Part shown: one piece after another, positions 26,839 through 43,887 of the stretch
How the letters are laid out: each line of letters begins with the position of its first letter
How positions within the stretch are numbered: position 1 is the stretch's first letter
IMG/VR virus record: IMGVR_UViG_2545824693_000007
Location: 925-64,924 of that record
Direction: 5' to 3' (one strand)
Length of the DNA stretch: 64,000 bases
Source of the DNA: a virus
Notes under the pieces: model-generated
Told to the model about the DNA's origin: nothing
The model's input: only the letters and a program-made list of their open reading frames with translations
Databases searched by the model: none
Program-made: the position numbers and the translations under genes

Positions 26839-27552
26839 TCATCTCCCTTTTTTAAGAACTGTTACTTTAACATTTTTCCGGCCAAAATCTTTTGCAATTG
26901 ATTCAGATCCAACAAGAACATCAATCCTATTTCCTTTAATATCACCTCCTGTGTCTATTGCGTAGGCTTCAAATGAATTGCTGCCGTATGAAACTCTTAC
27001 TAATGAATTTAAAGGGATTAAAGAGGGATCAACAGCAATGACCCTCTTCCCCCTGTAGTAAATCGTATTTGACACGTCGTAGCCTGTTTTTGTTGTTCCT
27101 ATGCAGCCAGTGTCACAAAATGAAATGTAGGCTGTGGCAACCATACTAAAGACTTGAGCTTGTTCTTCAGGCTTCTTTTTAGTTTTCTGATCATAGCTCT
27201 TCCCCTTACTCTCGCGTTTCACTTTTAATTTGTTTTTATGTTTTTTCTTTTTCATTTCTTCTACTTTTATATGTAAATACTTATCTTGTGCTTCTTGAAT
27301 GATCTCTTGACTTGTCTTTAAATGCGGCAGCACCTCACTTTCAAATTCGAAATCCCAAATGTTGAGTTTCTTATAAAATGGCTCTTTTATTGAGTCTTTG
27401 TTTGACTGCAACAATTGATCATTCATTGATTTGTATGTTAATGTTGATCCCACCCCCAGTAAGAAGATAACAGAATATATCTTCATTTCTTTATAGATAT
27501 TATATACTTTTAATTTGTTTAAGTCTATCAGTTTTTTGAAAATTTCCATCAA
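26839..27552 (-). CDS. yorM: 3D-domain cell-wall hydrolase / lytic transglycosylase
   Basis: ATAY...IAVDPSLIPL...AIDTGGDIKGNRIDV; N-terminal TM. Confidence 0.85.
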   Translation of the reverse strand: MMEIFKKLIDLNKLKVYNIYKEMKIYSVIFLLGVGSTLTYKSMNDQLLQSNKDSIKEPFYKKLNIWDFEFESEVLPHLKTSQEIIQEAQDKYLHIKVEEMKKKKHKNKLKVKRESKGKSYDQKTKKKPEEQAQVFSMVATAYISFCDTGCIGTTKTGYDVSNTIYYRGKRVIAVDPSLIPLNSLVRVSYGSNSFEAYAIDTGGDIKGNRIDVLVGSESIAKDFGRKNVKVTVLKKGR

Positions 27553-29267
27553 TCCTTTTTCTTGCCTTTTTTCGGTGTTTTAAGGAAATCATCGATCCTT
27601 TTCTTTGCTACAGAGATGTAATATTCCTTATCCAAATAGCTTGGAATTTCTTTTATTTTGACATCATCATTATCAATAAAACATTTTTCAGGCGTGTTTG
27701 CTATTTTTTCAATTCTTTCTTCATTTTTCACCTTGAAAACCCCTTCAGCGTCTTCGTTTTTAGAAGCAAAAACTCTTAAGACTTTTTCAGGTAGCTTCTC
27801 TTCTCCATGAAAAGCATACTTATACTTATTTGAAACCTTAACGATTTTCTGAAATTCTCTCAACTGGTTACAGTTATTTATCGTTTCTTCGACAGGAATA
27901 TTTTTTGTGAAATATTCGATCATTGCTTTATTCACAATTGGAAGATCATAATCAAGGTTGTTGAGCTTTTTAACATAAGCACCCTTTGATTTGTAATTTT
28001 GATTTCCATCAATGATTATGTAATTGTTAACATCCTTTTGATAAATCTTTTCATATACATCCCATTCAAGTGTAAGACGCGTTCGATTCTCCCATTCGTT
28101 TGCAACTTCTTTAATTATGTCAATATCTGCTTCCTTTTCAACCTTCATAAAAAGTCCATCTGTGTTTGATTGAATGAGTTTGCAATAAGGTTCAATTTTT
28201 TCGATAAGATCTAATAACAATAATTGACCAGCAAGACATACGTTATTTGCCATTAAGGGGTCATATAGCGGATTGTATTGATCTTTCATTGCTCCATATG
28301 TTGAGTTAAGAACGATCTTGTATGGAGCCTGTTTAGGATCTTTTTTTCGTTTAAGTTCAAGGCGTGTATCCCTAATCTCATTATACTTTAAAGGATCTCT
28401 AACGTTTCTACTGATATAACCATATTCAATCATAATGGATGGGTATAGAGATGCAACGTCACAACATAGAATAATCCCTTCATCCTTATACTTAGGAATA
28501 GCCCCATGAAGCCCACCCCAGGCAAATATATGAGGAACACCTGCCACATCAACTTTTAATTTTTTTGAGTAGTCAAGGTTTTCAGGATCTTTATACCACT
28601 CCACAATATGCTTGTATTTTTCAACTTTCAATGTCTTAGGGAACTGAAGATCAAATTCATCTCCCCTATTTTCATGCTTTTCCGCTCCTAATATAAAGGC
28701 TGACAATTGGGCTTTTGTTTTTGTAAACATCGACATGTTCAAGTTAAAGGCTTCGATTAATGCTAACTGACTTTCGAATTCCTCTTGTTTATTATCAAAA
28801 ACCTCAATTGTTTGTTTAACATCATGAATACAGTAGTCAATTACTACTTTGATTTCCTCTGGATTTAAAGGTCTGTCGATATCAAACGGAACTGATGACT
28901 CTTTAATTCTAGATCCCATGAAACCCTCTAGCTGCTTCAGACTATGGAATCCTGTTGTTATATCAAAATTGTTTAGGGGCATTTTATATCCTTCTCTAAC
29001 AACATTAAATCCCTTTACATTATCCTCAATGATTCTTTTACTAATGAAATGAGGGTTCATTCCTAGTAAGATTCCCTTTAGTATGTATTGATCGTACATT
29101 CTTGAGTTATATCCTATCCAAATATCATCTTTAAAGAGCTTATAGAACCTTTTTAACTCATCAATGTTGTCTACAATAACTTTTCCCTTTTTTGAATCAT
29201 AATCAATTAAAACAACCATCCAGTTGTGCTTGAAAACTTCAAAGTCATAGAATATTTTCCTCATCAT
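27549..29267 (-). CDS. Family B DNA polymerase
   Basis: Exo I YDFE; motif A DVASLYPS; motif B KIVLNSTYG; motif C NTDG. Confidence 0.88.
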   Translation of the reverse strand: MMRKIFYDFEVFKHNWMVVLIDYDSKKGKVIVDNIDELKRFYKLFKDDIWIGYNSRMYDQYILKGILLGMNPHFISKRIIEDNVKGFNVVREGYKMPLNNFDITTGFHSLKQLEGFMGSRIKESSVPFDIDRPLNPEEIKVVIDYCIHDVKQTIEVFDNKQEEFESQLALIEAFNLNMSMFTKTKAQLSAFILGAEKHENRGDEFDLQFPKTLKVEKYKHIVEWYKDPENLDYSKKLKVDVAGVPHIFAWGGLHGAIPKYKDEGIILCCDVASLYPSIMIEYGYISRNVRDPLKYNEIRDTRLELKRKKDPKQAPYKIVLNSTYGAMKDQYNPLYDPLMANNVCLAGQLLLLDLIEKIEPYCKLIQSNTDGLFMKVEKEADIDIIKEVANEWENRTRLTLEWDVYEKIYQKDVNNYIIIDGNQNYKSKGAYVKKLNNLDYDLPIVNKAMIEYFTKNIPVEETINNCNQLREFQKIVKVSNKYKYAFHGEEKLPEKVLRVFASKNEDAEGVFKVKNEERIEKIANTPEKCFIDNDDVKIKEIPSYLDKEYYISVAKKRIDDFLKTPKKGKKKD

Positions 29268-29273
29268 TACCCC

Positions 29274-30341
29274 CTAAGAAAATAAATTATCGAATACATC
29301 AACCTTATCCTTTTTCTTAAACTGTTTTGACGATTTATCCAAGAACTCTTTATAAAACTTACATGTTTTTCGATGTCCACATAGTACGCTGCAGTAAAAA
29401 GAATTGTATTTGTTAATTTCAACAGGTTTCCATACAGCTTCGTTACTTGCATCTTTAGATTCAATTTCATTTACTGTATTGACAACATAATCTTTTAATT
29501 CATTTATCCTTTCTTCAGTAATTTCATATTCAACGATACAATCTTCTAACCAATATTTATTTTTTATTTCATCAGGTAAACACTCTAAAGTGTTTTGTTT
29601 TACGGCATTGTCCAGTAGTAATTCGATTTCAAAATCATCCATTCCATTGTTTTTCAGATCTTTCTCAAGTTGATTTCGAATCTCCTTAACCCACTTGCCG
29701 CGATTGCACATTTTCTTTTTAATTTTTTTCTTTCCTTGGGAACATACATAAACATATTTGATCATAAACCACATGATCTTATCTACTTTTAGGTTTGTAG
29801 TGTTTTCAATAGCCAATTTATACATTAACAGTTGTCGACCAGCTTCGTTCAACTTCTTCCCGGTAAACTTACTTGATGTTTTCCAGTCGTATATATTTAC
29901 ATATGGTTTGCCTTTTTCACTTGGCAGAATAGCGTCAACGTACCCTTGAAAATAAACTCCATCTGTAATTTCAAATACAAGCAGCTTTTCTAAAATCATT
30001 TTGCTGTCAATTTTATTAAAGTTGTTTATAAAATGACCGACATCTGCTTTCCAACTGTCCCCGATAGTTTCACTTGGAAAACTGATCCCATTCATTTCTA
30101 ATTCAAGTAATCTATTTTCAAAGTCTTTTTTGAATTTCTCTATGTCCAGTTTATTACGATAAATCTGTTCAATACCATCGTGTAATTCAGATCCCATGAT
30201 GGTATAAATATTCTCAATGCCTTTCTTTTTTAAAATGTATGTATTGTAATATTCATATTCACAGTTATTAAAGGTTCCTAGTTTGGAAAATGAATAAATG
30301 TTCTTCCCTTGCTCCTTCAATTCATTTAATTTATCTTCCAA
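29274..30341 (-). CDS. PD-(D/E)xK nuclease (AddB/Cas4-like fold)
   Basis: YSFSKL...C...GSELH; GYVD; YDWKTS; QLLMY; C-terminal Cys cluster. Confidence 0.8.
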   Translation of the reverse strand: MEDKLNELKEQGKNIYSFSKLGTFNNCEYEYYNTYILKKKGIENIYTIMGSELHDGIEQIYRNKLDIEKFKKDFENRLLELEMNGISFPSETIGDSWKADVGHFINNFNKIDSKMILEKLLVFEITDGVYFQGYVDAILPSEKGKPYVNIYDWKTSSKFTGKKLNEAGRQLLMYKLAIENTTNLKVDKIMWFMIKYVYVCSQGKKKIKKKMCNRGKWVKEIRNQLEKDLKNNGMDDFEIELLLDNAVKQNTLECLPDEIKNKYWLEDCIVEYEITEERINELKDYVVNTVNEIESKDASNEAVWKPVEINKYNSFYCSVLCGHRKTCKFYKEFLDKSSKQFKKKDKVDVFDNLFS

Positions 30342-36316: not shown

Positions 36317-36345
36317 ATTATATCCTTTTAATTTGTTTATGTAAA
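36317..36345 (-). promoter_or_regulatory. Sigma-A promoter with the phage repeated motif as its spacer
   Basis: TTTACA-taaacaaattaaaagga-TATAAT. Confidence 0.75.
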
Positions 36346-36435
36346 CACTAATTAAAAATTTTTTAAAATTAACAGGTTAACATAACACTTTGTAACATTC
36401 TATTTATATTTAATTTTTCTAAAATTAAGAATTAT

Positions 36436-36475
36436 ATATTCCCATCTTTACTTGTAAATGGGAATATTGTATTAT
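36436..36475 (+). promoter_or_regulatory. Promoter of the toxin operon, overlapped by a 10-bp inverted repeat
   Basis: TTTACT-17-TATTAT; ATATTCCCAT-12-ATGGGAATAT. Confidence 0.45.
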
Positions 36476-36529
36476 TTTATTTGCATTGATTAAATTATGG
36501 TGAAAAAGGTAATTGAAAGAGGTTGTTAG

Positions 36530-37420
36530 ATGAAAAAAGTTTTTTTTACTTTTATTTTGTTAATATTACTAGCTAGTTGCACTAATAACAGCTCCCAAAT
36601 TTCTTTTTCAAAAAGCGACTGCGAAAAAAATTGGGCACTTTGCGCTGTTTTCCCAAATGAAAAAGTCAAATTCTATTCACCTAAAGAACCTATAAAGGTA
36701 GCATTATTGGATAGTGGAGTAAGTAGTTCTCTATCAATTTTTAAGAATAGTTCAATAATTTCATATGATGCTATAAACAATAAGCCTACTACCATAGATT
36801 CTTTAGGTCATGGTACAGCCATAGCCAGTATCTTATTGGCTCCTGCTAATAAGAAAACAGTTCATGGCGTATCACCTAAAGTGAAATTATTTGATGTAAA
36901 GGTACTAAACGATAAAGGAGGTGGTGACGTTGATAATGTAATTAACGGAATCGATTGGAGTATCAAGCAGGATGTTGACATCATTAATCTTAGCTTTGGT
37001 TTTCAAAAAGATGACAAAAAGTTAAAACATGCAATTGATAAAGCAATCGAGAAAAATATTATAGTTATCGCTTCTGCCGGCAATACATTAGGTCTTTCAA
37101 CAGATTATCCAGCAAAGTATCAAAATGTGATATCTGTTTCTTCTGTTGATAAAAACCTAAGAAGAGATAAATTTGCAGCTAAAGGTAAGGTTGACTTTGT
37201 TGCACCTGGCGTTCAAGTTCCTGTTTTAACTCCTTCCGGTAAATTAGAAACTGTTGATGGCACATCATTTGCAACGGCTTTTGTCACAGGTATAGTATCC
37301 AATATCCTATCTAAAAATCCAGAGTTTGAAAGGGAAGATGTCTTGAATTTTTTAAAGAGCACAGCAAAAGATTTGGGGAAGAAAGAAGATTATGGTTACG
37401 GGTTAATACAATATAACTAA
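36530..37420 (+). CDS. S8 subtilisin-like serine protease, lipoprotein
   Basis: Lipobox LASC17; D61 (LLDSG), H94 (GHGT), N185 (SAGN), S246 (GTSFA); no propeptide. Confidence 0.93.
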   Translation: MKKVFFTFILLILLASCTNNSSQISFSKSDCEKNWALCAVFPNEKVKFYSPKEPIKVALLDSGVSSSLSIFKNSSIISYDAINNKPTTIDSLGHGTAIASILLAPANKKTVHGVSPKVKLFDVKVLNDKGGGDVDNVINGIDWSIKQDVDIINLSFGFQKDDKKLKHAIDKAIEKNIIVIASAGNTLGLSTDYPAKYQNVISVSSVDKNLRRDKFAAKGKVDFVAPGVQVPVLTPSGKLETVDGTSFATAFVTGIVSNILSKNPEFEREDVLNFLKSTAKDLGKKEDYGYGLIQYN

Positions 37421-37431
37421 GAAAAAGGAGA

Positions 37432-38328
37432 ATGAAATTGAAATATTTTATTAGCTTTTTGTTAGCTGTTTTTGTATTTTATAACGTAGGGACAAGTTTT
37501 TCCTTTGCAACAACAAATCAAACACAAAACAATTATCAAGATGTAATTAATAAGGAGCAAATAGAATCTGAAACAGAAGATTTCTTTGGTGAGTCTGTCA
37601 ATGGTAATGATGTTGCATTAGAAAGCCAAGTCGATGGTAATGAAGCAACTATTCAAACAAAGATTGAAACAGATGATTTATCGGTTGATGGTGAATTAGA
37701 ATTAAATCTAGAAACTAGTGACATGATTGTTTCCGCAGAAGCAACAGATGATAATGGTACACTTTTTCAAGGCGATTTTGATGTAGAATTACAAGATGTA
37801 AATGATGATGGGGATTTTATTGCAACTTTAACTGATATTGAAACAGGAGAACAATTTAAAGTAAATACTGCTGAAGTTAAAGCCTCATGGTATCCTTTAG
37901 TTGTAATTGCTATTACTGTTGCACGTATTGGTATTAAACAAGCTATTAAGAAATTTGGAAAATCAAGTGTTAAAAAAGCAACTAAAAAGTATGGTAAAAA
38001 AACCTCAGCGTCAAAAGCTGTACGAAAAGTAAATATGTCGAAATTAGATTCTCATTACAAAAAGCACAAAAAAGAGTTCGGTAATATCTCCAAATCTCAA
38101 TATTTGAATAAAGCACGAACCTTTTTAGGGAAAGCTACTAGCAAAACAGTTCTCCAAAAAAGAAGCAAGAAAAAATTCAATGGTAAATATCGTTACTATA
38201 AGTATAATAAAAAGACCAATGAATTTTTAGCAGTAGAACGACAAAAGGATAAGGATGTGATTATTACATATTTCAAGCCAAAACATCCAAATAAAAAAGC
38301 TGGTTATGAATATTATAAACGGCAATAA
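37432..38328 (+). CDS. Secreted polymorphic pro-toxin (SAR2788-like N-terminus, RNase-like C-terminal domain)
   Basis: Signal peptide; acidic beta-rich prodomain; amphipathic cationic helix; HYKKHKKEFG...YL..A..F...YNKKTNEF...IITYFKP. Confidence 0.75.
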   Translation: MKLKYFISFLLAVFVFYNVGTSFSFATTNQTQNNYQDVINKEQIESETEDFFGESVNGNDVALESQVDGNEATIQTKIETDDLSVDGELELNLETSDMIVSAEATDDNGTLFQGDFDVELQDVNDDGDFIATLTDIETGEQFKVNTAEVKASWYPLVVIAITVARIGIKQAIKKFGKSSVKKATKKYGKKTSASKAVRKVNMSKLDSHYKKHKKEFGNISKSQYLNKARTFLGKATSKTVLQKRSKKKFNGKYRYYKYNKKTNEFLAVERQKDKDVIITYFKPKHPNKKAGYEYYKRQ

Positions 38329-38358
38329 TTAAATAAAATAATAAATGGGGGATCAATA

Positions 38359-38718
38359 TTGGAAAAAGAATTATATTCCTGTCTAGTATGCGGATATAAA
38401 GGATTAAATGAAAAACTTTTAGATAATGGCGAGTATCAAAAAACATTTGAAATTTGTCCATGTTGCAATTTTGAATTTGGCTACAGTGAAGATCATGATG
38501 TGAGTTTAGGCTTTATTGTAACTCCAGATCATTTAATTGAGGCTGCATTTCAATTGTATCGAAAACAATGGATCGAGGCTGGGATGAAAATTGCTCATCC
38601 TGAAGAAATTCCAGAAGATTTAAAAAATGGGGAGTGCTTAAAATTTGAAGTTTTAATGAAACAATTGAAAGCCCTAAATCTTGACATGGAAAATCTCGAT
38701 ATTGATGGCATTAATTAA
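38359..38718 (+). CDS. Cys-rich CPCC-type immunity protein
   Basis: CLVCGY...EICPCCNFEFGY...YRKQWI; acidic; directly after the toxin. Confidence 0.7.
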   Translation: MEKELYSCLVCGYKGLNEKLLDNGEYQKTFEICPCCNFEFGYSEDHDVSLGFIVTPDHLIEAAFQLYRKQWIEAGMKIAHPEEIPEDLKNGECLKFEVLMKQLKALNLDMENLDIDGIN

Positions 38719-38730
38719 TATCCCAACCTT

Positions 38731-38756
38731 AGAAAAAGCCCTTATGGGCTTTTTCT
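38731..38756 (+). terminator. Rho-independent terminator
   Basis: AGAAAAAGCCC-TTAT-GGGCTTTTTCT. Confidence 0.8.
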
Positions 38757-39083: not shown

Positions 39084-39569
39084 ATGAAGAAAAAACTTAT
39101 TTCATTTATCATGGTGTTCACGTTAGCTGTGCTGGCTGTATCAGTTGTTTCTCCTGGCTATGCAAGTGCAGCGGAAAGTAAAAAAGTACCTGTAGTTCAA
39201 AATAGCATACAGGCTCCTTTAGCTTCAAATATGAAAACCGATATTGCTAAAATCCAGTCAAAGCTTGAGACTCCTGTAGCTGCAAATTCTAAAGTACATA
39301 CACAGGGTATTCCTTTCGCTAAACAAATATTAGTAAAAGCACTTAGGGTTGGTGGTCCCGCTTTAGGAACCCTTATTAAAAAGATCCCATATAAATGGGC
39401 TCAAAAAGCTGGAGATGCTTGTTCTAAGTGGGGACACAAAGCCGCGGACGTTATAGATGAACTTACAAATTTCGGAGAAACAGCCGTTACTGTGGCATTA
39501 GTGAAAGCTGGAATTCCATTAGCTGATGCACAGTTAATTGCGAAGGTTGTTGTGTTCTTTTTGCTATAA
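39084..39569 (+). CDS. Secreted pre-pro bacteriocin-like protein
   Basis: Signal peptide ending ASA; pro-region; amphipathic helical C-terminal region starting GIPFAKQILVKAL. Confidence 0.6.
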   Translation: MKKKLISFIMVFTLAVLAVSVVSPGYASAAESKKVPVVQNSIQAPLASNMKTDIAKIQSKLETPVAANSKVHTQGIPFAKQILVKALRVGGPALGTLIKKIPYKWAQKAGDACSKWGHKAADVIDELTNFGETAVTVALVKAGIPLADAQLIAKVVVFFLL

Positions 39570-39578
39570 CTATACATT

Positions 39579-39620
39579 AAAACAAAAGAGTGAGGCTTAT
39601 AACCTTCACTCTTTTGTTTT
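39579..39620 (+). terminator. Terminator hairpin between the secreted protein and the membrane protein
   Basis: AAAACAAAAGAGTGA...TCACTCTTTTGTTTT. Confidence 0.7.
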
Positions 39621-39642
39621 AATTAGGTAAGGAGAGATCACC

Positions 39643-40164
39643 ATGAATCTGCTTGTTATGACGTTATCAATTTATCTTTTGTTTCTCATCGTCTTTTTTA
39701 TTTTTATGTACAGAGGAGAAAAGAAAGAAGCTGCAGAAAAAAACACAAATGAAAAATTTTTATTATCTACAGTAATAGGAGCTTTGGTTTTATCACTAAT
39801 TCCTACTGCAGTCATAATGGGGATAATCTTATTTGCAACAGGATCAGCAAATGTACTTGTAAGCTTCTTTGAATTAGAAATAGGATTCAATCAGATTGTT
39901 ATTATGAGTGTGTGTATGGTTGTTTATTCTTTTACTTTTGATAATATTTTTGTGGCTGTTGGAAGGCACCTCATTGGAGATAACTTTTTCAAGTTTATAT
40001 TTGCCTCATTGTTTAGGTTTTTATTTATTTATATAGTGGGTATCTTGTGTTCAATTGGGAGTAGCGACAACTTTAAATTATCATTAGGATTAACTTTATT
40101 TTTTCTTTTATTAGAATGTATTTTCCCTAAAAAGCCTGATCGTACTCAGAATATAGAATCTTAA
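39643..40164 (+). CDS. Multi-pass membrane protein, candidate immunity protein
   Basis: About 5 hydrophobic helices in 173 aa. Confidence 0.7.
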   Translation: MNLLVMTLSIYLLFLIVFFIFMYRGEKKEAAEKNTNEKFLLSTVIGALVLSLIPTAVIMGIILFATGSANVLVSFFELEIGFNQIVIMSVCMVVYSFTFDNIFVAVGRHLIGDNFFKFIFASLFRFLFIYIVGILCSIGSSDNFKLSLGLTLFFLLLECIFPKKPDRTQNIES

Positions 40165-42398: not shown

Positions 42399-42761
42399 TT
42401 ATCTAATTTTCAGTGCTTTTAATGCCGCTAAGCATGTTGCTTTCTCTGGTTTTTCTGCCCAAGCTTCATACTCGTCAAAAGCAGCACACCAATCTTCCAG
42501 ACCGATAAAATCGTGTTCTCTTGATAAATAAAAATTTAGTCCATAACCTTTTTGTAGCTTCTCAACTACCTGCAATGCTAAACTCATTTCTCCCGCAAAG
42601 TTTTTAAGATTAACCACTTTCCCATCATTATCAAAAGCCAATTCATCGGCCACAATATCCCCTAAAAGCTCAAAGCATTCATCTGGAGTGATTTTCCTCT
42701 TCTTGTAACCGTTGAATAATCGGTCTTGAATCAATTCATTAATTTCAACATTACTTCTCAT
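42399..42761 (-). CDS. Phage protein (ABA-sandwich/BC1872-like)
   Basis: [13 protein letters not shown]...WCAAF...[14 protein letters not shown]. Confidence 0.55.
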
Positions 42762-42982
42762 CTAATCCCTCTTCTCAATTTGTTTTTATCCATCACATCA
42801 ACAACAAAAGCTTCAAATTCCTTATCCCAATATGGTTTTGTTCTTGCTATGTACTTTTTTAAAACTCCATCTTCCTCGATCATAAACGTCTCGCCACGTT
42901 CTATTTCAGTGAATTTCTTCTTTGTCCAGATTCCCCTAATCAATACTTTCACATCTTTAAGCTGCACTGATGTTTGGTACAT
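42758..42982 (-). CDS. Hypothetical protein (yoqX-like)
   Basis: 74 aa, divergent from ligB. Confidence 0.55.
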
Positions 42983-43074: not shown

Positions 43075-43887
43075 TTGTTTATAGCTCCAATGCTGCTTGA
43101 TTCAGCCAAAGAGCCATTTGATGATGAAAACTATATTGCTGAGCTTAAATTTGATGGAATACGAATCATTCTATCTAAGCAAGATGGTAAGATTAAGCTC
43201 TACACGCGCCATAATAATGAAGTCACCAATAAATTCCCTGAGCTGCATGATATTGATATTCCCGAAGGGACAGTCTTAGATGGGGAAATTATCGTTACCA
43301 ATTCTGATGGGTTGCCCGATTTTGAATCTGTTATGGAACGTTTTCAATCAAGCAAATCTTCTCATCAAATTGTTTATTGCGTGTTCGATGTCATAAGATT
43401 AAATGAAATATCAATAGCTTCAAATCCACTTTTTAAACGCAAGGAATTCCTTAGATCACTAAATCTTAACCATCCAAATATCTTTGTGATTGAAGGAGTA
43501 CAAGGCAAAGGAAAAGCCTATTTTGAAATGGCTAAAGAAAAGAACCTTGAAGGAATCGTGCTTAAGAAAGCAAACTCCCCTTACGAGATCAACAAGAGAT
43601 CGGAAAACTGGATCAAGGTTATAAATTATCAGTACACTGACGTGCTCATTACTGGATACACTAAGGAAGATATCAAGTTTCTTCTCAGTTACCCTGACGG
43701 TTTATCTGCCGGGTTCATGGAATTTATGCCATTCGATGAACGCAAATACTTCCACTCTATCAAACAAATAGAATATGAAAATGACGATTATGTATTCATT
43801 AAGCCTTTATTATGTAATGTGAAGCACCGTTTTAAGACTAAAAATGGCAAACTTCGTATCCCCTCATTTAATTCCTGGAGAGATTAA
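43075..43887 (+). CDS. ligB: ATP-dependent DNA ligase
   Basis: ELKFDGIR, LDGEI, FDVI, EGIVLK, WIKV; 270 aa. Confidence 0.93.
   Translation: MFIAPMLLDSAKEPFDDENYIAELKFDGIRIILSKQDGKIKLYTRHNNEVTNKFPELHDIDIPEGTVLDGEIIVTNSDGLPDFESVMERFQSSKSSHQIVYCVFDVIRLNEISIASNPLFKRKEFLRSLNLNHPNIFVIEGVQGKGKAYFEMAKEKNLEGIVLKKANSPYEINKRSENWIKVINYQYTDVLITGYTKEDIKFLLSYPDGLSAGFMEFMPFDERKYFHSIKQIEYENDDYVFIKPLLCNVKHRFKTKNGKLRIPSFNSWRD

Follow-up and report, generated by a model that had tools for sequence, protein, structure and literature searches.

The three-gene cassette

A 64,000-nt stretch of a provirus (IMG/VR record IMGVR_UViG_2545824693_000007; hereafter the window, which covers part of the 76-kb record) contains three tightly spaced, co-oriented plus-strand open reading frames (ORFs; 36530-38718 in the ORF listing) encoding an S8 protease, a pro-toxin and a small acidic protein. 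These genes, which we call abpP, abpT and abpI, very probably form a complete interbacterial toxin cassette of the ABP, or S8-PTS, type. The S8-PTS was defined as a set of three proteins (an S8 peptidase, a toxin preceded by a signal peptide and a BetaH domain, and an immunity protein) comprising 16 families of toxin and 20 of immunity protein (Li, Tan and Zhang 2022, PMC9424270). The same system was then named ABP (AbpP/AbpT/AbpI) and its mechanism worked out (Colautti, Garrett and Whitney 2025, PMC12582261; Mwangi et al. 2025, bioRxiv; reviewed in 2026, PMC13460014). The first-pass annotation of this DNA had stated that S8 peptidase-toxin-immunity loci were already described; this is correct, as they were published as S8-PTS/ABP between 2022 and 2025, and the three-gene mechanism is not new.

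The cassette is flanked on both sides by minus-strand phage genes, that is, genes in the opposite orientation, and the sign of the GC skew switches over exactly the cassette stretch. The site had first been read as an operon running against phage transcription under its own promoter and terminator, and the arrangement of the ORFs between minus-strand phage genes agrees with this (Table 1). The operon closes with an intrinsic terminator that none of 200 shuffles equalled. The candidate promoter matches the consensus at only 9 of 12 positions, yet its TTTACTT and -10 element are invariant across six homologous loci, prophage and non-prophage alike. The AAAGAGGTT of the abpP ribosome-binding site (RBS) is also invariant in six homologous loci.

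Table 1 Features of the abp cassette, in window coordinates
Feature	Position	Strand	Description
Inverted repeat	36436..36467	none	ATATTCCCAT-N12-ATGGGAATAT; candidate operator
Candidate sigma-A promoter	36447..36475	+	TTTACT, 17 nt, TATTAT; 9/12 consensus match
abpP RBS	36516..36523	+	GAAAGAGG; read from sequence
abpP (gene 1)	36530..37420	+	296 aa; S8 (subtilase) processing protease, probable lipoprotein
abpT (gene 2)	37432..38328	+	298 aa; pro-toxin
abpT, Sec signal peptide	37432..37509	+	aa 1-26 (...FSFA/TT, predicted cleavage after FSFA); read from sequence, within NF038340
abpT, BetaH beta-sheet part	37510..37881	+	aa 27-150; acidic, putative inhibitory 'cage' (NF038340, isoelectric point, AlphaFold2)
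abpT, loop	37867..37890	+	A146-W153 (AEVKASWY); predicted AbpP cleavage region, between last strand and helix (model)
abpT, central helix	37888..37995	+	aa 153-188; hydrophobic then cationic, putative membrane-entry element (model, charge, conservation)
abpT, C-terminal toxin domain	38026..38325	+	aa 199-298; BECR-fold RNase, CdiA-CT(O32:H37)/colicin D-like (fold and profile matches)
abpI (gene 3)	38359..38718	+	119 aa; TTG start; acidic five-cysteine (CxxC...CPCC) immunity protein
Intrinsic terminator	38731..38756	+	Hairpin, 11-bp stem, -16.7 kcal/mol, z -6.06; closes operon

An S8 protease and a putatively caged pro-toxin

AbpP matches Pfam Peptidase_S8 (PF00082, E = 2.6e-47), and the subtilisin triad first read in it is intact, with D61, H94 and S246 in canonical LLDSG, GHGT and GTSFA motifs. 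Both AbpP and AbpT begin with hydrophobic, Sec-type N termini, which we read from the sequence (lipobox LASC in AbpP, FSFA|TT in AbpT). Lipid anchoring of gene 1 had also been claimed: the lipobox (L-A-S-C17) is indeed present, but the LPAM_1 match is weak (E = 0.02, below the cut-off), and we regard the anchoring itself, at Cys17, as probable from the sequence. The lipobox cysteine is kept in AbpP of nine related Bacillaceae loci, and most of the remaining AbpP homologues have an N-terminal hydrophobic segment lacking it. The lipobox raises a testable point, namely the site at which the toxin is activated.

Residues 4-185 of AbpT match the NCBIfam family NF038340 ('SAR2788 family putative toxin', spanning signal peptide and BetaH) with an E value of 4e-58. 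The acidic part (aa 27-150) has an isoelectric point (pI) of 4.05 and a net charge of -29.5, and the remainder (aa 151-298), which begins with the WYPLVV... helix, has a pI of 10.42 and a net charge of +36; these values are close to the published family means of 4.1 for the acidic part and 10.7 for the cationic fragment. An AlphaFold2 model built from 18 homologues gives a BetaH topology at low confidence, with seven strands at 61-145 and helices at 154-175 and 177-188. The central helix (charge +8.8, hydrophobic moment 0.30-0.45) is the most conserved block in the family, and the WYPLVV...KKYG helix together with the H..KH..EFG...YL..A...YN..TNEF...T.FKP pattern makes up the most conserved columns among AbpT homologues. 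The layout originally proposed for gene 2, a signal peptide, an acidic prodomain, a cationic helix and a basic domain bearing this pattern, agrees with both the charges and the conserved columns.

In published systems the S8 protease cleaves within the loop that joins the BetaH sheet to the central amphipathic helix, at Gln159|Ala160 as mapped in C. casei and at a predicted S146|A147 in S. aureus (2025 ABP papers). A151, S152, W153, Y154 and P155 are invariant or nearly so among AbpT homologues. The cut near VKAS|WY suggested earlier falls in a loop that agrees with the cuts in homologues, but the exact bond may be another: because the family consensus around the predicted cut is EVQAS-WYP and the bond mapped in a homologue is Gln|Ala, K150|A151 would by analogy be at least as likely a scissile bond as S152|W153.

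A helix resembling the central helix of AbpT was also seen elsewhere. A 271-aa, very basic protein encoded in the virion-structure module of three metagenomic phage contigs (L022:4693-5508, L023:1583-2398 and L024:3702-4517) has the N terminus MALPIIAAIARMGITQAIKKFGKGAVKKA, which is 68% identical over 28 residues to that helix. The likeness could be chance, or it could reflect a membrane-entry helix common to a phage ejection protein and ABP toxins.

A BECR-fold RNase tip

The C-terminal domain of AbpT was modelled confidently (predicted local distance difference test score, pLDDT, 77-91) with a helix-helix-four-strand layout. It superposes on 8ey4_A, the CdiA-CT of E. coli O32:H37, with Z = 12.3 and a root-mean-square deviation of 2.2 over 85 aa at 31% identity, and a profile of 20 toxin-domain homologues matches the same chain with E = 2.7e-21. 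The suspicion that gene 2 ends in a BECR-fold, CdiA-type RNase tip is thus borne out by both profile and structure searches. Similarity to the colicin D tRNase is more distant (Z 7.9-8.2; profile E = 0.017, borderline). Among toxin-domain homologues H212 is invariant and H208 nearly so. H212 aligns with the histidine of the colicin D KH motif (the Y-KH..FG motif being aligned), which we take to be His611, reported to be catalytic (Graille et al. 2004), and H212, H208 and K211 are candidate catalytic residues from the alignment.

An exhaustive HMMER search found the toxin domain in 112 representative proteins, some of which are RHS-repeat or haemagglutinin-repeat (Fil_haemagg) proteins that end in it, marking it as a true shuffled polymorphic-toxin tip. 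No Pfam family matched the tip above threshold in AbpT or in the 20 domain homologues, and a sub-threshold 'Mesothelin' match was discarded as a low-complexity artefact.

The properties of the central helix could also be read in terms of a type I membrane protein, in which the signal peptide directs export of the acidic domain, WYPLVVIAITVARIGI serves as the stop-transfer anchor and the basic domain is retained in the cytoplasm of the producer, forming with gene 3 a toxin-antitoxin or abortive-infection-like module that serves the prophage. The first 16 helix residues are mostly hydrophobic (mean hydrophobicity 0.43), the strongly positive stretch after them is in keeping with the positive-inside rule, gene 3 encodes a cytoplasmic immunity protein, and exclusion systems are common in prophages, where this locus lies. 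However, homologues with the same BetaH have been found in supernatants, cleaved by protease and killing from outside (ABP papers), this toxin domain also forms the end of secreted RHS and CdiA-like proteins, and the strict linkage to an exported S8 protease would be left without a role. We therefore rejected this topology as highly improbable and treat AbpT as a secreted, protease-activated ABP toxin.

A cysteine-rich immunity protein

AbpI is acidic (pI 4.5) and contains CxxC and CPCC motifs, with C8, C11, C33, C35 and C36 invariant in all 12 AbpI homologues. Its acidity and its cysteines thus stand as first described, but the Pfam CPCC family, Cys_rich_CPCC (PF14206), is matched only below the gathering threshold (11.8 bits against a cut-off of 24.5). 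Sub-threshold matches to PF14206 were obtained for 8 of the 12 homologues (best E = 5.4e-4), and the immunity chain of 8EY4 carries the annotation Cys_rich_CPCC. The cysteine pattern of AbpI fits the published 4Cys-Imm family, which is described as a pair of zinc knuckles similar to the TFIIS finger (Li, Tan and Zhang 2022, PMC9424270). The pair of AbpT tip and AbpI may be homologous, as a pair, to the contact-dependent inhibition (CDI) complex in 8EY4, for which the shared family is suggestive only.

Toxin tips and immunity genes are exchanged together

A scan of species-representative genomes yielded 17 loci; a word-index search with the AbpT N-terminal region alone returned 9 close relatives with a single tip, and the genome scan revealed the others. 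In nearly all 17, an S8 gene lies 5' of the toxin gene and a small gene lies 3', the exceptions being one locus whose nearest S8 gene is downstream (L010) and a 920-base fragment (L017). NF038340 is present in all toxins tested from related loci, despite three distinct tips. The BECR tip described here is followed by the gene for a cysteine-rich protein; an Ntox35 tip (E = 8.9e-26), found in Paraliobacillus and Virgibacillus, by that for an unrelated 150-aa protein; and an unnamed tip, found in Rossellomorea and Bacillus sp. CH30_1T, by that for a 184-aa protein. An abpI-type gene always lies 3' of the present tip and is replaced where the tip differs. Swapping of C-terminal toxin/immunity pairs behind a conserved N terminus, which the first-pass annotation had proposed as a test, is what these loci display.

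Downstream of their main ABP operon, two of the related loci carry displaced modules. In Bacillus sp. WMMC1349 (L006:6697-7403) there is an orphan, front-less copy of the present tip, 77% identical over aa 195-298, with a second immunity gene, and in B. changyiensis (L005:6767-7413) there is a BetaH remnant with a second immunity gene. Orphan tips or BetaH remnants and extra immunity genes are hallmarks of polymorphic toxin loci.

The cassette occupies a variable slot of SPbeta-like prophages

The flanking minus-strand genes form a phage replication module (PHROG assignments: DNA polymerase, exonuclease, primase, DnaB-like helicase and Sak4-like ATPase), and the window also encodes a ribonucleotide reductase and a LigB-like ligase (43075-43887). 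Directly upstream of the cassette, a 110-aa gene product is a YorE homologue (47% identity), and a YoqX homologue is encoded downstream at 42758-42982. On the SPbeta map, yorD-yorA and yoqZ-yoqX lie between yorE and yoqW/yoqV, so the cassette occupies the variable yorE-yoqX interval, replacing yorD-yoqY. The earlier assignment to the yorA-D accessory slot of SPbeta therefore holds approximately.

The same slot holds a cassette in a 173-kb IMG/VR provirus (L020), in B. glycinifermentans GO-13 (L002 and L021, which are one contig), in B. swezeyi (L003), beside YoqX and a YoqW that is 96% identical to the SPbeta YoqW, and in B. rugosus (L004), between a YorC-like gene and YoqX/YoqW/LigB. SPbeta-like prophages of at least four Bacillus lineages thus carry the cassette in the yorE-yoqX slot. 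The remaining related loci have no SPbeta genes within 5 kb. Cassette proteins are 92-99% identical in two further proviruses, and neither the cassette nor the toxin had a match among 50,697 sequenced phage records (blastn and tblastn).

Beyond prophages, a plasmid-encoded SAR2788-family protein of P. megaterium is 49-51% identical to AbpT over its full length and has the same toxin-tip family. SAR2788-family toxins are annotated on 16 plasmids, 10 of them from P. megaterium (records H30-H39; the others include H40-H44). One plasmid record labelled Klebsiella grimontii has a match of the same identity and extent as that on a B. thuringiensis plasmid and looks mislabelled or contaminated. Cassette DNA is also present in food-fermentation metagenomes; two food-metagenome transcriptomes contain contigs covering a GO-13-like cassette variant, and short, near-identical metatranscriptome contigs lie on all three cassette genes.

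A palindrome at the cassette promoter

The inverted repeat upstream of abpP overlaps the -35 element of the cassette promoter as well as a divergent minus-strand promoter. It is conserved in the 173-kb provirus, B. swezeyi and B. rugosus, and weaker in B. changyiensis and Bacillus sp. WMMC1349. Its half-site is not enriched beyond chance elsewhere in the 64-kb window, which rules out a general phage-repressor site; we regard the palindrome as a candidate operator. As such it offers a concrete handle on ABP regulation.

Two near-consensus minus-strand promoters (TTTACA-16/17-TATAAT, 11/12 match) lie at window positions 36317-36458, facing the yorE replication operon, and the palindrome at the cassette promoter also overlaps the upstream one of the two. 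One regulator could therefore control both units.

Interpretation of the locus

In our reading the locus is a complete interbacterial toxin cassette of the ABP/S8-PTS type that an SPbeta-like Bacillus prophage carries in its yorE-yoqX slot as an accessory module; we give this reading a probability of about 0.88 on the strength of the gene content, family membership, toxin fold, polymorphism and prophage location described above. Several observations weigh against it. The BetaH part of the AbpT model has a pLDDT of only 45-58. The AbpI model is mediocre (pLDDT 66) and the fold search with it gave no significant match, the zinc-ribbon fragments retrieved being look-alikes only, and the link of AbpI to CPCC and CdiI proteins lies below every threshold. 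In the Pfam scan neither AbpT nor the 20 toxin-domain homologues matched Colicin_D, so the domain is ColD-like and not a Colicin_D member, and its RNA target is therefore not assignable. Finally, RNA-library depth on the cassette is about that on the neighbouring phage genes, and the assemblies carry no strand information or transcript starts and may include DNA carry-over, so these libraries are not evidence of expression in the lysogen.

The cassette could also be a silent or decayed passenger, intact in sequence, unexpressed or inactive in its host and kept in a variable region of the prophage through recombination. The RNA evidence is ambiguous, ABP genes are silent under standard laboratory conditions in the organisms examined (2026 review, PMC13460014), and related loci contain orphan and truncated modules. 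Against this, none of the three ORFs is disrupted and their catalytic and conserved residues are present, the promoter, RBS and terminator are conserved across species, and the 92-99% protein identity in the two further proviruses suggests purifying selection. We consider such a passenger improbable and favour a functional toxin cassette.

How this cassette would work can be outlined from its published relatives, in which the freed helix and cationic toxin enter diverse Gram-positive cells in a manner dependent on membrane potential and a cytoplasmic immunity protein protects the producer. A lysogen, its host close to B. glycinifermentans, would transcribe abpP-abpT-abpI from the cassette's own promoter. 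Sec would export AbpP and AbpT; AbpP would probably stay lipid-anchored at Cys17, and AbpT would leave the cell inert, as a pro-toxin whose hydrophobic/cationic helix lies against the acidic BetaH sheet. AbpP would then cut the A146-W153 loop, freeing helix plus toxin (pI about 10.4), and the fragment would insert into neighbouring Gram-positive membranes, drawn in by membrane potential. Inside, the colicin D-like BECR domain would degrade RNA, possibly through H212, H208 and K211, and in lysogens a cytoplasmic zinc-knuckle AbpI would neutralise the incoming toxin. Cleavage, the entry route and RNase killing by AbpT are taken from published homologues; on that analogy, each step of the mechanism originally proposed for the locus agrees with that of the family, to which NF038340 (E = 4e-58) assigns it.

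Beyond this, we infer the lipid anchor, the operator function and any benefit to the phage. It is possible, with odds somewhat short of even, that SPbeta-family phages spread complete ABP cassettes through a yorE-yoqX hot spot, each cassette with a palindrome-controlled promoter and a terminator, so that the lysogen both makes and withstands a protein antibiotic of broad spectrum, and that the protease is lipid-anchored in this Bacillaceae branch. If so, the pro-toxin would be armed at the producer's own surface and not by a freely co-secreted enzyme. Phage transfer would help to explain the patchy distribution of ABP systems, which carriage on phages and plasmids would fit, and acquisition of the prophage would be a case of lysogenic conversion, yielding a strain that makes an antibiotic and is immune to it. 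SPbeta lysogens of B. subtilis would then provide a tractable setting in which to ask when ABP genes switch on.

Neighbouring genes

Past the terminator lies a second plus-strand pair (window 39084-40164). One gene encodes a secreted basic protein of 161 aa, in which a signal peptide is followed by a helical C terminus rich in Gly, Ala and Lys that ends in a hydrophobic tail; the product of the other is a multi-pass membrane protein of 173 aa. The 173-kb provirus has an identical pair and GO-13 has other genes in its place, which indicates a separate swappable module outside the ABP operon. The pair matched no Pfam, NCBIfam or PHROG family, and Atlas returned only unnamed Bacillota clusters. 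An 84-aa gene downstream of the cassette had no match in sequenced phage records.

The replication module is unlike that of SPbeta proper, as judged from its polymerase, exonuclease and Sak4-like ATPase. At window 27549-30341 it encodes a 572-aa polymerase of phrog_1252 (a phage DNA polymerase family) and a neighbouring nuclease of an 'exonuclease' family, at the position where SPbeta has yorL and the RecJ-like yorK. The Sak4-like ATPase has relatives in four sequenced phage records only.

Comparison with known systems

The first-pass annotation had likened the cassette to sublancin (sunA/sunT/sunI), which SPbeta itself encodes. Both are prophage-encoded, secreted antibacterials with an immunity gene that would arm the lysogen against non-lysogens. 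Sublancin, however, is a glycosylated peptide that is exported by an ABC transporter, targets the glucose phosphotransferase system and is encoded at a different phage position; there is no homology, and the likeness is ecological only.

Two solved toxin-immunity pairs contain structural relatives of the tip. Colicin D/ImmD (1V74, 1TFO) shares the BECR fold (Z about 8) and the aligned Y-KH..FG motif, but the profile match is borderline, the immunity protein is unrelated and colicin D uptake needs FepA/TonB. CdiA-CT/CdiI of O32:H37 (8EY4) is closer: the toxin domains are homologous and the immunity partner belongs to Cys_rich_CPCC, the family that AbpI resembles below threshold, although the 8EY4 immunity protein has 70 aa against 119 aa in AbpI and homology of the two is unproven. 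Its delivery is contact-dependent through CdiB/CdiA, unlike a diffusible, protease-activated toxin. The tip and its CPCC-like immunity protein nevertheless connect a diffusible toxin of Gram-positive bacteria with a CDI toxin-immunity pair solved from a Gram-negative species.

The closest match overall is S8-PTS/ABP, with which the cassette shares the gene order, the acidic sheet, the cationic helix-plus-toxin, polymorphic tips with matched immunity proteins and NF038340, the family named after the S. aureus protein SAR2788. One published member, AbpT-Pm of Priestia megaterium, is a colicin D-fold ABP toxin and a promiscuous RNase (PMC12582261); the P. megaterium relative of AbpT, whose locus is plasmid-borne and not prophage-borne, may be the same protein. 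Published AbpP is described as co-secreted, whereas the enzyme of this locus, like that of eight other Bacillaceae loci, bears a lipobox. In the main texts of the S8-PTS/ABP papers cited here, word searches found neither phage or prophage carriage nor a lipoprotein protease. With the mechanism already known, the value of this locus lies in its context: recurrent carriage in the SPbeta slot, a probably lipid-anchored protease and a conserved promoter palindrome are the points that add to the published picture of ABP systems.

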